A stretch of 4,409 nucleotides of DNA, taken from the IMG/VR virus record IMGVR_UViG_2734482545_000008. One strand, 5' to 3'. This stretch comes from a virus. Taxonomy: Duplodnaviria; Heunggongvirae; Uroviricota; Caudoviricetes. Under the pieces are notes generated by a model. The model had not been told where the DNA came from. It did no database searches and saw only the letters and a program-made list of their open reading frames with translations. Positions 1-4,409 of the stretch are shown here, piece by piece. A program made the translations under genes and the position numbers. Position 1 is the first letter of the stretch. The number at the start of each line of letters is the position of its first letter.

Positions 1-79
1 GCTTTGAACTCTTTAGAGTAACGTTGGGTTTTTCTGCTCATTATTAGCTCCTTCTGATGCCATTCTATTTCAGGAAGGA

Positions 80-782
80 GTGTCCGTTAAACTCAGGCTA
101 CCTCAGGTTATTCGCTTCTGGGCATGGGCGGATCAACAAATGATAGACGGTAATGCAGATTGTAACGCTCGCGGCGTTACAAAAAGTGCAATAGATCGCA
201 TCACTTTTATGTCTGGTTTTGCTGATGCGTTAATTCAGGTTGGATGGCTGGTCGAAAATGACGGAGGGCTTTCTCTACCTAACTTTGAACGTCATAACGG
301 AAAAAGCTCTAAAAAAAACGGGCGGTTACAAACGAGCGAGTAACAAAAATACGCGAACTGAAACGAAAAGGTAACGCTGCCAGCGTTACACAAACGGATC
401 AAAAAGCGTTACCAGAGGAAGAGGAAGAGGAAGATCTAAATACTGATCTCCCCCTCGCCAAAAACGAGCGTCTAAAAAATTCGAGCCGGAGGCTATTGAG
501 CTGCCCGATTGGTTGCCGGAAACACTCTGGCATGAGTGGGTCCGGTTCAGACAGGCATTGCGAAAACCGATTCGAACGGAGCAGGGCGCTAACGGGGCGA
601 TACGGGAACTGGAAAAATTCCGTCAGCAGGGTTTTACACCTGAGCAGGTGATTCGACACAGCATCGCCAATGAATACCAGGGCCTGTTCGCGCCGAAAGG
701 TGTTCGGCCTGAGACGTTGCTCCGACAGGTTAACACCGTCTCGTTGCCGGACAGTGCGATCCCGCCAGGCTTCAGGGGGTAA
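80..782 (+). pseudogene. Phage replication-initiation / replisome-organizer-like protein, frameshifted (two -1 frame changes) or carrying homopolymer sequencing errors
   Basis: Three collinear + strand segments read as one protein: frame 2 from GTG 80 (AGGAAGGA just upstream) to stop 341-343; frame 1 open 313..649 (…KIRELKRKGNAASVTQTDQKALPEEEEEEDLNTDLPLAKNERLKN, no ATG); frame 0 open 447..782 (…PDWLPETLWHEWVRFRQ…PPGFRG*, no ATG; the ORF track's M at 513 is a TTG). Frame switches coincide with A8 (311-318) and A6 (474-479). Stop at 780-782 lies 6 nt before the dnaC-like ATG (coupling). Function inferred from position and the basic/acidic linker; not from a search. Confidence 0.5.
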
Positions 783-788
783 CGGACC

Positions 789-1219
789 ATGAAAAATATT
801 GCGACAGGCGGCGTTCTGGAACGCATCCGCCGACTGACCCCGCCACATGTAACCGCCCCATTCAGAACGGTAGCGGAGTGGCGCGAGTGGCAACTTGCTG
901 AAGGCCAGAAACGTAGCGAGGAGATCAACCGCCTGAATCGCCAGTTGCGGGTGGAAAAAATTCTGAATCGCTCAGGCATCCAGCCGTTGCACCGTAAATG
1001 CTCGTTTGCGAATTACCAGGTGCAGAACGACGGCCAGCGATACGCGTTAAGCCAGGCGAAATCCATCGCCGATGAACTGATGACCGGGTGTACAAATTTT
1101 GCGTTCAGCGGAAAACCTGGTACCGGGAAGAATCACTTAGCGGCAGCTATCGGGAATCGCCTGCTGAAAGACGGTCAGACAGTGATTGTGGTTACCGTGG
1201 CTGATGTTATGAGCGCCCT
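789..1219 (+). CDS. dnaC: DnaC-family AAA+ helicase loader (phage-encoded, lambda P functional analogue); 5' part only, interrupted by N-run
   Basis: ATG at 789. N-terminal 143 aa match my recollection of E. coli DnaC closely: NRSGIQPLH, CSFANYQV, Walker A FSGKPGTGKNHLAAAI, VTVADVMSA. The reading frame runs into the N block at 1220; the C-terminal ~100 aa (Walker B, sensor motifs) are not present in the window. Confidence 0.9.
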
Positions 1220-1294
1220 NNNNNNNNNNNNNNNNNNNNNNNNNNNNNNNNNNNNNNNNNNNNNNNNNNNNNNNNNNNNNNNNNNNNNNNNNNN
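1220..1294. other. Run of 75 N (assembly gap or masked sequence)
   Basis: Directly visible. The 314-aa ORF 789..1733 in the ORF track is an artefact of translating these N as X. Confidence 0.95.
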
Positions 1295-1310
1295 AGTTTC
1301 AGGAGGATTT

Positions 1311-1733
1311 ATGGCGAAACCTTTTACTCCCGAACAGCGGGAAGAACTGAAGACGCGAATTGTGGAACTCGTGCATCAGGACGGTCGGGTCACGATTCGG
1401 CAGTTGTCAGATGAAACAGGTATCAGTCGTGCGTCTGTCGGTCGCTTATGCATAGAACTGGTCGCAAGTGGTGATGTATATAATTCTGGCTACGGCTTAT
1501 TCCCGTCTGAACAGGCTCGCAAGGACTGGCAAAGCGCCCGCAAAAAACTCTCGAGAGTAAAGGTGAGGAAACCGGTTGTTGTTGATCCGGACCTTATCTG
1601 GTCATTACCTGACGGAGAAATACGCCGCTACGACAGGCGCCTGAATATAATCTGTCGCGAGTGCCGGAAGAGCGAAGCTATGCAGCGTGTACTGGCTTTC
1701 TATCAGGGTAATTTTCAGGAGGCGATACTGTGA
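1311..1733 (+). CDS. Small helix-turn-helix (probably winged-helix) DNA-binding protein, 140 aa; function unknown
   Basis: AGGAGG at 1301-1306, 4 nt before ATG 1311; stop TGA 1731-1733. The segment VTIRQLSDETGISRASVGRLCIELVASGDV has the hydrophobic/Gly/polar pattern of an HTH. No resemblance to the DnaC C-terminus, so it is a separate gene. Confidence 0.75.
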   Translation: MAKPFTPEQREELKTRIVELVHQDGRVTIRQLSDETGISRASVGRLCIELVASGDVYNSGYGLFPSEQARKDWQSARKKLSRVKVRKPVVVDPDLIWSLPDGEIRRYDRRLNIICRECRKSEAMQRVLAFYQGNFQEAIL

Positions 1734-2294: not shown

Positions 2295-2981
2295 ATGACC
2301 CCAATAAACATATTTATGACAGTTGCTGATTTCAAACGGCCCAAATTGGAGCTCCCAAACGGGGCAAACAAACTACTACTGCACTCTTGCTGTGCTCCAT
2401 GTTCCGGTGAGGTGATGGAGGCGCTTCAGGCCTCGGGAATCGACTACACCATCTTTTTCTACAACCCGAACATTCATCCTCAGAAAGAGTATTTAATTCG
2501 TAAGGATGAGAATATTCGCTTTGCTGAACAACACGGCGTGCCGTTTATTGATGCTGATTACGACACAGACAACTGGTTTGAACGAGCCAAAGGAATGGAA
2601 TGGGAGCCCGAACGAGGGATCCGTTGCACCATGTGTTTTGACATGCGTTTTGAGCGGACAGCGCTGTACGCCGCTGAAAATGGTTTCAGTGTGATCAGCA
2701 GTTCACTGGGCATTTCACGCTGGAAAAATATGCAGCAGGTTAACGACTGTGGGCGGCGAGCCGTCGCGCATTATCCGGGCATGGTGTACTGGGATTATAA
2801 CTGGCGCAAGCAGGGCGGCTCGTCCCGTATGATTGAAATCAGCAAGCGCGAAAAATTCTATCAGCAGGAATATTGTGGCTGTGTGTATTCTCTGCGCGAT
2901 ACCAATCTACACCGCAAATCTCAGGGACGCCCTCTTATCAAAATTGGTCAACTCCACTACGGTAAAGAAGAGAAGGAGTGA
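2295..2981 (+). CDS. queH: QueH-family (DUF208) epoxyqueuosine reductase-like Fe-S protein, 228 aa
   Basis: Cys signature [11 protein letters not shown] near the N-terminus, [10 protein letters not shown] mid-protein and EYCGCVYS near the C-terminus, which I recognise as the conserved Cys/His pattern of DUF208/QueH. Start is uncertain: ATG 2295 or ATG 2316, neither with a clear SD. Stop TGA 2979-2981. Confidence 0.78.
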
Positions 2982-3002: not shown

Positions 3003-3032
3003 TTGATTTCATATTGGCGAGGTAAGTAGAAT
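3003..3032 (+). promoter_or_regulatory. Sigma70-like promoter candidate: TTGATT, 18-nt spacer, TAGAAT
   Basis: -35-like TTGATT 3003-3008 and -10-like TAGAAT 3027-3032, in the intergenic region after queH and pointing into the masked block. Hexamer match only; not verified. Confidence 0.3.
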
Positions 3033-3130
3033 GACTGCGGGTGCTTGAGGCTATCTGCTTCAGGCATGAACACCAAAAGGCAGATAGAGAAAAGCCCCAG
3101 TTAACATTACGCGTCCGGCAAGACGCTTAA

Positions 3131-3471
3131 NNNNNNNNNNNNNNNNNNNNNNNNNNNNNNNNNNNNNNNNNNNNNNNNNNNNNNNNNNNNNNNNNNNNNN
3201 NNNNNNNNNNNNNNNNNNNNNNNNNNNNNNNNNNNNNNNNNNNNNNNNNNNNNNNNNNNNNNNNNNNNNNNNNNNNNNNNNNNNNNNNNNNNNNNNNNNN
3301 NNNNNNNNNNNNNNNNNNNNNNNNNNNNNNNNNNNNNNNNNNNNNNNNNNNNNNNNNNNNNNNNNNNNNNNNNNNNNNNNNNNNNNNNNNNNNNNNNNNN
3401 NNNNNNNNNNNNNNNNNNNNNNNNNNNNNNNNNNNNNNNNNNNNNNNNNNNNNNNNNNNNNNNNNNNNNNN
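3131..3471. other. Run of 341 N (masked or unsequenced block)
   Basis: Directly visible. Bracketed by a promoter-like element upstream and an intrinsic terminator downstream, so it probably hides a short + strand transcription unit. Confidence 0.95.
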
Positions 3472-3501
3472 GTCAGGCATCCTCAACGCACCCGCACTTA
3501 A

Positions 3502-3544
3502 CCCGCCCATCGCTGTGATCTCTCAGCGTTTCGGCGGGTTTTTT
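3502..3544 (+). terminator. Rho-independent terminator (nested GC hairpin plus U-tract)
   Basis: CCCGCC (3502-3507) pairs with GGCGGG (3533-3538); inner stem CGCTG (3511-3515) pairs with CAGCG (3524-3528); followed by TTTTTT at 3539-3544 and more T-rich sequence. Orientation matches + strand transcription; comparable to the tR-type terminators in the lambda nin region. Confidence 0.55.
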
Positions 3545-3564: not shown

Positions 3565-3592
3565 TTGATTCGCGCACCTTCGCAGATAGAAT
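3565..3592 (+). promoter_or_regulatory. Sigma70-like promoter candidate: TTGATT, 16-nt spacer, TAGAAT
   Basis: -35-like TTGATT 3565-3570 and -10-like TAGAAT 3587-3592, just after the terminator and about 80 nt before ATG 3674. Same two hexamers as the candidate at 3003-3032. Confidence 0.35.
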
Positions 3593-3673
3593 CGACTCAC
3601 TTAAGTAGCGCGCAGGGAGAAGAGGGATGGACCCCGAACAGGGGAGAGCTATTTATCTGGAAGGATTCTGAAG

Positions 3674-3961
3674 ATGAAAATCGAAGAATTGCGTGAAATT
3701 TTTAGTGAAAATGGCCTCTATGCTGTGCGCGTTGAGAATGGAGCGATTGTCAGCCATTGCCGCATTAGATGTTTGCAATCTCAACAAAGGAAGAGCGGTG
3801 CTGTGTTATTTTATTTTTGTAATGGACTTCTGACGGACGGTTTTATTTTGCGTGAGGACGAATTTGTCACATCATTACGGGTTTTGAAAGAGATTGGTTT
3901 TAAGGCTGGTTTTCTGCTTTTGCTGAAGAATAAACTCATCTACAATCTTGAGCAGGATTGA
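3674..3961 (+). CDS. Hypothetical small protein, 95 aa, AT-rich coding sequence
   Basis: ATG 3674 preceded by GGAAGGA (3660-3666); stop TGA 3959-3961. No family recognised. Composition looks AT-richer than the replication genes (by eye, not computed). Confidence 0.5.
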   Translation: MKIEELREIFSENGLYAVRVENGAIVSHCRIRCLQSQQRKSGAVLFYFCNGLLTDGFILREDEFVTSLRVLKEIGFKAGFLLLLKNKLIYNLEQD

Positions 3962-3999
3962 ACTCCTGCTGTGTAACACCGTGCCACCGGAGAAAGCCG

Positions 4000-4353
4000 A
4001 TGGCACATATACAACTGGTCAAACAAACCTCTTCCGGATTACTTCTCCCGGCGACGCCGGAGAGTTGCGATTTTCTGCATCAAATCAAAATAGGTGAGTG
4101 GATACACGCAGACTTTAAGCGTGTGTGTAACTACGCATTCCACAAGCGTTTTTTCAAACTCCTGCAACTGGGTTTCGATTACTGGACTCCGGTCGGTGGG
4201 GCGATCACGCCTCGCGAACGAAAACTGGTGTCCGGTTTCGTTGATTACCTGTGTGAATCAGTAGGCCGGGAACATACGCCAGCTCTGAGCGAAGCCGCAG
4301 AGCAATTGAGGTGTACTGGCAATAGCGGACACTACCATTTGTTCTTTTTTTAA
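4000..4353 (+). CDS. Hypothetical protein, 117 aa
   Basis: ATG 4000 preceded by GGAG (3989-3992) with a 7-nt spacer; stop TAA 4351-4353. The track's longer version starts at TTG 3958 with no SD. No family recognised with confidence. Confidence 0.6.
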   Translation: MAHIQLVKQTSSGLLLPATPESCDFLHQIKIGEWIHADFKRVCNYAFHKRFFKLLQLGFDYWTPVGGAITPRERKLVSGFVDYLCESVGREHTPALSEAAEQLRCTGNSGHYHLFFF

Positions 4354-4409
4354 GCAGCCATCTGATGATATTTTTCCCTGAAGGCTGCCGGGGAGATATT
4401 CCCCAGACG

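Follow-up and report, generated by a model that had tools for sequence, protein, structure and literature searches.

Between positions 3565 and 4353 of a 4,409-nt stretch of phage DNA (the whole stretch is called the window below), a promoter-like sequence directly after a terminator is followed by two small open reading frames, ORF1 and ORF2. The question is whether they form an acquired accessory cassette or belong to the regulatory equipment of the phage itself. A first, sequence-only reading took them for a moron. Morons were reportedly defined by Juhala and Hendrix as autonomous promoter-gene-terminator units inserted between backbone genes. Our analysis leads elsewhere. We consider it very probable that the region represents an antirepressor module, belonging to a lambdoid prophage of the DicA/Gifsy type, and that this prophage persists as a decayed, IS600-riddled Shigella sonnei remnant beside modC-gal.

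The host prophage

Exact look-up of the 117-aa ORF2 product retrieved contigs L006, L007, L009 and L010, and the unmasked parts of the window (three segments) are 100% identical to them. In contigs matching the window exactly, the remnant adjoins modABC-gal. The gene order in L006 starts with an HTH repressor of 135 aa, followed by a P22_Cro-like protein and YdaT, after which comes an O-like gene that IS600 splits. Next are a DnaC-like gene, DUF977 and a Zn-ribbon protein, and then QueH, hok/sok, ORF1 and ORF2. Beyond ORF2 lie IS600, an integrase fragment and modC. The hok gene falls within a masked stretch of the window (3131-3471), the Rfam match to sok begins at 3039, and a near-identical record annotates hokD just 5´ of the terminator discussed below.

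The IS600 copy in the O-like replication gene contributes its right end to the window (1..105, minus strand) and is accompanied by a 3-bp GGT duplication; together with a second direct copy (4307..4409) it brackets the segment. The dicB-side operon of the prophage is also broken by IS, and the late genes are gone. The variable cargo slot of these prophages lies 5´ of hok. It holds QueH here, and elsewhere a restriction enzyme, a kinase/phosphatase pair, the Paa adhesin or relBE.

The first gene is a frameshifted rem

Both frames were initially left without a family, and profile searches have now named both. ORF1 (3674..3961, plus strand, 95 aa) is rem, the antirepressor gene of a DicA-type prophage repressor. 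Its product is 68% identical to Rem of the E. coli K-12 Qin prophage over residues 1-80 (BLASTP E 2e-34), it matches phrog_340 (E 6e-20), and the exact protein carries a precomputed Pfam annotation, PF27490 'Rem'. Our own scans of ORF1 against Pfam (a release predating PF27490), NCBIfam and PADLOC gave no match; the Pfam scan was empty because PF27490 is newer than the release used. The gene is AT-richer than its surroundings, as had been noticed by eye: its GC content is 39.6%, compared with 50.5% in the native DUF1367 part of ORF2 and 48.8% in the window. A Ka/Ks ratio near 1, which would have spoken against a real gene, was not seen. Codons 1-80 gave dN/dS values of 0.18-0.37 against 9 homologues, and rem is therefore a real coding gene under purifying selection.

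At 50% identity the narrow Rem family forms 38 clusters out of 1.8 billion representatives, and these are Escherichia/Shigella-like throughout except for a few fragments from Citrobacter, Klebsiella and Pluralibacter. Within E. coli it is common and occurs in 3023 of 5426 complete genomes. The scan of genome contigs gave 10 loci, in a collection that holds one genome per species. Structure prediction was uninformative: the AF2 model of the 95-aa Rem reached a pLDDT of 61.8, and Foldseek found no match in the PDB with E < 0.7. Sequence searches of the PDB with Rem and DUF1367 returned no significant match either.

Canonical Rem proteins have 83-86 aa and end in KAGFSAF plus acidic residues, where KAGF is nearly invariant and SAF with the acidic end is present in the intact homologues aligned. 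The allele in the window departs from this pattern. At 3910-3913 it has T4 where relatives have T5, a 1-nt deletion that shifts the frame after F80; the ancestral stop would fall at 3931-3933. Residues 1-80 are canonical, and residues 81-95 (LLLLKNKLIYNLEQD) are unrelated sequence in place of the conserved SAFAEE tail. An 86-aa homologue (P0003) is the same as ORF1 up to residue 80 and then continues into the intact SAFAEE end. The 95-aa product proposed for ORF1 thus owes its last 15 codons to a frameshift. Relative to K-12 Rem, ORF1 also has a 4-residue insertion, SQQR.

Because the conserved tail is lost through the frameshift, this copy of Rem may be inactive. One can go further and regard the whole locus as an inert relic, with an inactive 95-aa Rem, a DUF1367 pseudogene and a promoter whose transcript serves no purpose. 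Such an explanation concerns the activity of the locus and not its identity, and we see it as a serious possibility whose chances are somewhat below even. The SAF and acidic residues are replaced, the new tail is predicted to be disordered, and the surrounding prophage has lost its late genes, has its O-like gene split by IS600 and has an IS-interrupted dicB-side operon. The same frameshifted tail recurs in a second rem lineage (P0044/P0045), as would fit a slippage-prone run of T. On the other hand, about 1000 contigs from S. sonnei, S. dysenteriae, S. flexneri, S. boydii and E. coli carry the 95-aa allele unchanged, its residues 1-80 are intact and hold every invariant position outside the tail, and the cognate repressor gene is intact as well.

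The second gene is half of a DUF1367 gene fused to IS600

ORF2 appears as a frame of 117 codons (4000-4353) with GGAG 9 nt 5´ of its start. It matches Pfam DUF1367 (PF07105) with E 1e-46, over profile positions 1-102 of 198 only. In two E. coli chromosomes the DNA is 99.8-99.9% identical through position 4306, after which an intact gene of 199 aa continues; relative to that gene, the native part of ORF2 has one substitution, R43C at 4126. Non-partial DUF1367 proteins (the best 120 of 271 clusters) measure 197-203 aa, almost all of them 199-200. From 4307 on, the window reads as the end of IS600 (TGAGGTGTACTGGC...), that is, the terminal 103 nt of this IS3-family element (4307..4409, minus strand, with the transposase genes on the minus strand). 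The last 15 codons of ORF2 and its stop (4351-4353) are supplied by the element. The half match to the profile and the junction at 4306/4307 thus resolve the 117-aa frame into 102 native and 15 IS-derived codons. What remains of the original gene is the 5´ half of a DUF1367/irsA-family gene, a pseudogene remnant of codons 1-102 plus 1 nt (4000..4306, plus strand).

The IS600 end is found in 2881 E. coli genomes, and the matches listed are annotated as IS600. Identity among the matches listed is 96.5-98.2%; of 3433 records that match, from 2887 genomes, 3124 reach at least 99%. The full copy in L006 (1264 bp, 10308-11571) is flanked by AAT and GTT, hence by no target duplication. From this and the adjoining integrase fragment we conclude that an IS-mediated deletion took away the remainder of the nin region together with Q and the genes for lysis and structure.

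The original gene belongs to the phage backbone. It is a nin-region gene (order DUF1367-YbcO-Q), truncated here, and its intact relative is 53% identical to STM1020, the irsA homologue of Gifsy-2. The DUF1367 family corresponds to phrog_319, which is labelled 'NinB/Orf'; the lambda recombination mediator NinB/Orf is PF05772 (PDB 1PC6). Compared with its family, ORF2 shares the N-terminal 102 residues and the usual place 5´ of YbcO and Q, and differs in being half a protein, the remainder replaced by the 15 IS600-derived codons. The exact 117-aa protein is deposited as 'bacteriophage protein [Shigella sonnei]' on 531 contigs. An annotation trap is thereby corrected: the "bacteriophage protein" of hundreds of S. 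sonnei assemblies is chimeric and joins half a DUF1367 protein to an IS600 end.

Terminator and promoter

The terminator said to precede the promoter was found by folding (3500..3544, plus strand). Its outer stem pairs 3500-3507 with 3533-3540, encloses an inner CGCTG/CAGCG hairpin and runs into T6 at 3539-3544; the fold has -25.6 kcal/mol (z -2.3). Owing to its long loop, a consensus scan had not detected it. In alignments it coincides with the terminator and 3´ hok sequence of relatives, and, since the masked stretch holds hok, this Rho-independent terminator closes the hok (hokD-type) mRNA at its 3´ end.

The putative sigma-70 promoter P_rem (3565..3592, plus strand) consists of the -35 hexamer TTGATT (3565-3570), a spacer of 16 nt and the -10 hexamer TAGAAT (3587-3592). 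It agrees with the consensus at 9 of 12 positions, and the predicted start is at about 3599. The sequence-only reading had proposed exactly this site. The site itself withstood our analysis, while its resemblance to the consensus, taken alone, is at chance level: scanning the window gave 2 matches against 1.1 +/- 1.2 expected. The case is made by comparison of upstream sequences. Across the 14 distinct sequences compared upstream of rem, TAGAAT(C) does not vary. The stretch from the terminator to the -10 comes in four versions that are unrelated, with 16-47% mutual identity, and all four keep TTGAnn 16-18 nt 5´ of the -10 (TTGATT-16, TTGAAG-18, TTGAGG-16 and TTGATT-16). The comparative evidence for a sigma-70 promoter of rem is good, and we infer from it that P_rem would be active.

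Alternatively, rem might have no dedicated promoter and depend wholly on antiterminated read-through, either from the early-right operon or from hok, and the conservation of TTGATT and TAGAAT would then have a different cause, such as their belonging to the 3´ region of hok. We judge this explanation unlikely. It is compatible with the chance-level match, the suboptimal spacer of 16 nt and the absence of an extended -10. Moreover, a constitutive P_rem in intact relatives would transcribe towards Q, because no terminator separates rem from DUF1367, and would be harmful. Such read-through does not account for a -10 that stays invariant within wholly different flanks, nor for the -35 that every version has at the right spacing. 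The E. albertii locus (L018) retains the terminator, promoter and leader, and no hok sequence lies upstream. Gifsy antirepressors have their own promoter at the same place. Finally, an antirepressor made only after derepression could not start induction. A dedicated promoter of rem is hence the reading that we keep.

As for the control of P_rem, two candidates were considered and rejected. LexA control fails on the absence of the canonical box: near P_rem, no match to CTG-N10-CAG with one mismatch or less was found, and in the best LexA-like 20-mer (CACTTAAGTAGCGCGCAGGG) 7 of 20 positions agree and the core CTG is broken. Direct control by the DicA-like repressor is rejected on the absence of DicA-type operators from the rem promoter; these read CTTAGG-N5/6-TCTAAG in this prophage and GTTAGT...ACTAAC in K-12.

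A conserved leader in front of rem

Between the predicted start and the gene, alignments of relatives define a leader (5´ UTR) of 75 nt (3599..3673, plus strand) with a nearly invariant core of 29 nt, TAGCGCGCAGGGAGAAGAGGGATGGACCC, at 3606-3634. A conserved ATG at 3627 starts an upstream ORF (3627-3671), whose length varies, with 14 codons in this leader as against 3 in K-12 and 8 in a further type. The rem Shine-Dalgarno sequence, GGAAGGA, lies at 3659-3665, 8 nt 5´ of the ORF1 start. The leader is more conserved than the gene that it precedes. In the K-12 type it is 89.7% identical (over query positions 17-94, which equal window 3599-3676), compared with about 76% in the coding sequence. It was found solely 5´ of rem-family genes, and the linkage is essentially 1:1, with 3609 places in 3032 E. 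coli genomes for the leader and 3591 places in 3023 genomes for rem.

In a candidate consensus hairpin the upstream AUG is base-paired and the Shine-Dalgarno sequence of rem is bracketed. In this hairpin 97.9% of cells are paired, the observed value was reached by 3 of 500 shuffles, and there is one compensatory exchange of A-U for U-A; the alignment lends this hairpin weak support. The fold of the single sequence is unremarkable (z -0.5), and the Rfam scan gave no family for the leader, its sole match being sok.

We tentatively suggest, as an idea that we ourselves hold to be rather doubtful, that the leader could be a post-transcriptional element sensing a non-SOS signal that induces DicA-type prophages. 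The idea draws on the conserved core with its AUG, the hairpin, the 1:1 linkage to rem, and the lack of a LexA box and of DicA operators. What signal induces rem and the DicA-type prophages has been stated as an open question (PMC10448788), and it is on this question that the conserved -10 and the leader without a LexA box bear. The conserved leader is the only lead from this locus that is worth keeping. The module is already known, since rem is a named and characterised family and the antirepressor-irsA layout was published in 2011. Moreover, over half of the complete E. coli genomes carry rem, which gives it little weight as a discovery. What we add by direct observation is the identity and synteny of this copy, its cognate repressor, the conservation of its promoter, the truncation of the second gene and the frameshift in the Shigella rem allele.

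Regulatory module or moron

The architecture from which a moron was deduced is largely there: an upstream terminator, an own promoter and two small genes with Shine-Dalgarno sequences (GGAAGGA for the 95-aa frame, GGAG for the 117-aa frame). The accessory function assigned to it is not supported. In its full form, that proposal holds the pair to be an independently acquired unit acting as toxin-antitoxin, in superinfection exclusion, in defence or in anti-defence, and we find it very hard to credit. Besides the terminator and promoter, it can call on the low GC content of rem (39.6%), on the label 'Antitoxin Rem' in one phage record and on the toxicity of overproduced K-12 Rem (PMC10448788).

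The toxicity has a different explanation. Rem-induced filamentation and toxicity need DicB or DicF; the toxicity of overproduced K-12 Rem is absent when dicB and dicF are both mutated, and the effect is gone when Qin is deleted (PMC10448788). Rem therefore acts via derepression and not as a toxin, and on this published dependence we reject the toxin-antitoxin reading. Neither PADLOC nor Pfam gave a toxin-antitoxin or defence match, PADLOC returning nothing for either protein. ORF1 encodes a regulator of the phage, and ORF2, as a backbone gene cut short, offers no partner protein.

Comparison with relatives points in the same direction. Variable presence of the cassette at this site, for which a comparison with related prophages had been proposed, was not observed. 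The slot between hok and DUF1367 or YdfU holds a rem-family gene, a remnant of it or a 57-aa variant in all loci examined, those of functional phages included, and in the 3023 E. coli genomes that carry rem the leader is always the same. As a rem-family gene fills the slot in every relative examined, we regard the locus as a phage regulatory module and not as a moron. Nor is the cassette self-contained, for the 3´ end of ORF2 was created by the IS600 insertion at 4307. The cassette ends in an IS, with no 3´ terminator: none was found after rem or ORF2, and the lone scan match, which does not exceed chance, falls within the reading frame of DUF1367 (4051-4068). Thus the locus resembles phage morons in its upstream terminator, its own promoter and the lower GC content of rem. 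It differs from them in that it is not variably present, regulates the phage's own life cycle, lacks a 3´ terminator and has a backbone gene as its second member.

A possible model of Rem action

K-12 Rem raised expression from dicBp 165-fold by relieving DicA repression (Ragunathan et al. 2023, PMC10448788). Like the Gifsy repressors, the repressor DicA (135 aa) has no RecA-cleavage site (PMC10448788). Contigs L006, L009 and L010 encode a counterpart about 6 kb 5´ of rem, a 135-aa HTH_3 repressor with 62% identity to DicA; it consists of the HTH alone and has no S24 peptidase domain, and its C-terminal half is conserved (LFGDEDK...EMRARVxNFNxLFEELLKAR). Three prophage types were compared, and in them each repressor type is paired with a distinct Rem type, which is anecdotal support for cognate pairs. 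By analogy, and with the same high probability, as a joint estimate, that we give to the identity of the module, Rem of this prophage would relieve repression by its DicA-like repressor, presumably by binding it.

The events may be pictured as follows. Firstly, the hok mRNA would end at the terminator, and the separate sigma-70 promoter would drive rem. In intact relatives the same promoter would also drive irsA/DUF1367, no terminator lying between the two; in the window rem and ORF2 are likewise co-oriented with no terminator between them. A promoter of its own would be needed because rem must be expressible while the early operons are repressed. Secondly, Rem (about 86 aa) would bind the short, non-cleavable HTH repressor of its prophage, as suggested by K-12 Rem and the Gifsy antirepressors. 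Thirdly, the repressor would leave its operators and the early promoters would switch on. Two lesions affect the copy in the window. The -1 frameshift swaps the six conserved C-terminal residues of Rem, and the IS600-mediated deletion has taken the distal half of DUF1367 together with all late genes.

Comparison with known systems

The order hok, rem, then DUF1367 with YbcO or YdfU with RusA, then Q is found in K-12 Qin, mEp460_ev081, PPompW, PhiR42_1 and 'phage Rac' (MN652886). Among these, mEp460_ev081, PPompW and PhiR42_1 are functional phages, and MN652886 already annotates rem as 'prophage antirepressor' and DUF1367 as 'irsA'. The closest characterised relative is the rem locus of K-12 Qin. 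There, too, rem lies right after the hokD terminator and before nin-like genes and Q, the -10 hexamer and the leader are shared, and the repressor is of the same kind (135 aa). The two loci differ in the sequence of the -35 and the spacer and in the next gene, which is YdfU/DUF968 in Qin and DUF1367 here. The tail of Rem is frameshifted here (95 aa versus 83-86 aa), and the host prophage is a smaller, IS600-deleted remnant.

A more distant parallel is provided by the Gifsy prophages. About 1.3 kb 3´ of their replication genes there is a terminator-like palindrome and then a promoter that bears a LexA box (Lemire et al. 2011, PMC3121763). In Gifsy-1, -2 and -3 this promoter is followed by dinI, the antirepressor gene (gftA, gfoA or gfhA) and an irsA homologue (PMC3121763). 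We checked the Gifsy-2 record and found the terminator and LexA box at 10980-11100, dinI, then gftA (GTG start, 73 aa), and after gftA STM1020, which is a DUF1367 gene. In both systems the module lies outside the immunity region and 3´ of the replication genes, a palindrome precedes an own promoter, a small antirepressor gene stands immediately 5´ of irsA/DUF1367, and the target is a short uncleaved repressor.

The differences lie in the trigger and in the protein. The Gifsy modules have a LexA box and dinI; the present module has neither and has hok/sok upstream. Between P_rem and rem there is no ORF, hence no dinI, save the non-conserved upstream ORF of 14 codons. As there is no LexA box, the Gifsy trigger (SOS) does not apply here. 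Rem and GftA gave no BLASTP alignment, and hhalign returned E 0.23 over 15 columns (NGxVT..R[DE][DE]), which is not significant. A link between Rem and the Gifsy antirepressors has been published as a transitive PSI-BLAST chain with 33% identity (PMC10448788). Since we detect no similarity between Rem and GftA, the Gifsy link rests on synteny, on the function of K-12 Rem and on that published chain. We file ORF1 not as a member of the Gifsy family but as a member of the Rem family that would work like a Gifsy antirepressor.

Organization of the IS600-bracketed segment

The 4.2-kb segment carrying a DnaC-like gene, DUF977, a Zn-ribbon gene, QueH, hok/sok, rem and a DUF1367 fragment sits between two IS600 copies of the same orientation. 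The left copy (window 1-105) corresponds to positions 4664-5927 and the right copy (window 4307-4409) to positions 10308-11571 of L006, a contig matching the unmasked parts of the window, and the two differ at 2 of 1264 positions. The left copy interrupts an O-like gene and represents a simple insertion with GGT duplication. The right copy is without duplication and directly adjoins an integrase fragment, from which it follows that the late genes were lost through IS-mediated deletion. This right-hand IS600 is fused to the replication region of a different prophage in a further assembly, L008.

Between the replication genes and hok, the prophage carries as cargo a gene for epoxyqueuosine reductase QueH (window 2295-2981; PF02677, E 2e-65). 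In relatives this slot is occupied by a restriction endonuclease, a Ser/Thr kinase with PP2C phosphatase, the Paa/AdfO adhesin, or relBE; it is this position upstream of hok that is genuinely variable and moron-like in these prophages. A second promoter-like site, TTGATT-N18-TAGAAT (window 3003-3032), with hexamers identical to those of the rem promoter, lies directly 5´ of the Rfam sok/hok match (3039-3098, the rest of the match being masked) and is probably the promoter of hok mRNA.

The N-masked stretches of the window (1220-1294 and 3131-3471) do not preserve length. In the former, 75 N stand for a part of the DnaC-like gene that is about 314 nt long, which results in an artificial fused ORF of 314 aa (window 789-1733); in the latter, 341 N stand for 281 nt.

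The DUF1367 fragment differs from the intact E. coli gene by a single substitution (window 4126, CGT to TGT, R43C). It affects a nearly invariant position of the family, in agreement with relaxed selection on this pseudogene.

The rem leader and the rem slot

Within the nearly invariant core of the rem leader (window 3606-3634) lies an upstream AUG that is conserved. The ORF that it opens (window 3627-3671; 14 codons, MDPEQGRAIYLEGF) ends 2 nt before the rem ATG, and neither its length nor its peptide is kept among relatives. As for a LexA box, the 20-mer at 3598-3617 (CACTTAAGTAGCGCGCAGGG) is similar only as CTT-N10-CAG.

Many E. coli, among them an O45:H2 strain, have a 57-aa variant in the rem slot (3181-3354 in the compared locus L003; proteins P0067, P0072 and P0075). 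It shares residues 1-23 with Rem (MKIEELREIFSENGLYAVRVENG), has a different, shorter C-terminal half, and matches phrog_340 at E 1e-18. The variant could be an antirepressor of alternative specificity, or a recombinant.

Repressors and presumed operators

The C-terminal halves of repressors are highly conserved among the three types compared, which makes them a candidate antirepressor-binding surface. The immunity region (L006 3161-3362 and 3771-3846) contains repeated CTTAGG-N5/6-TCTAAG palindromes, the presumed operators of this prophage; the sites of K-12 DicA, in contrast, read GTTAGT...ACTAAC.
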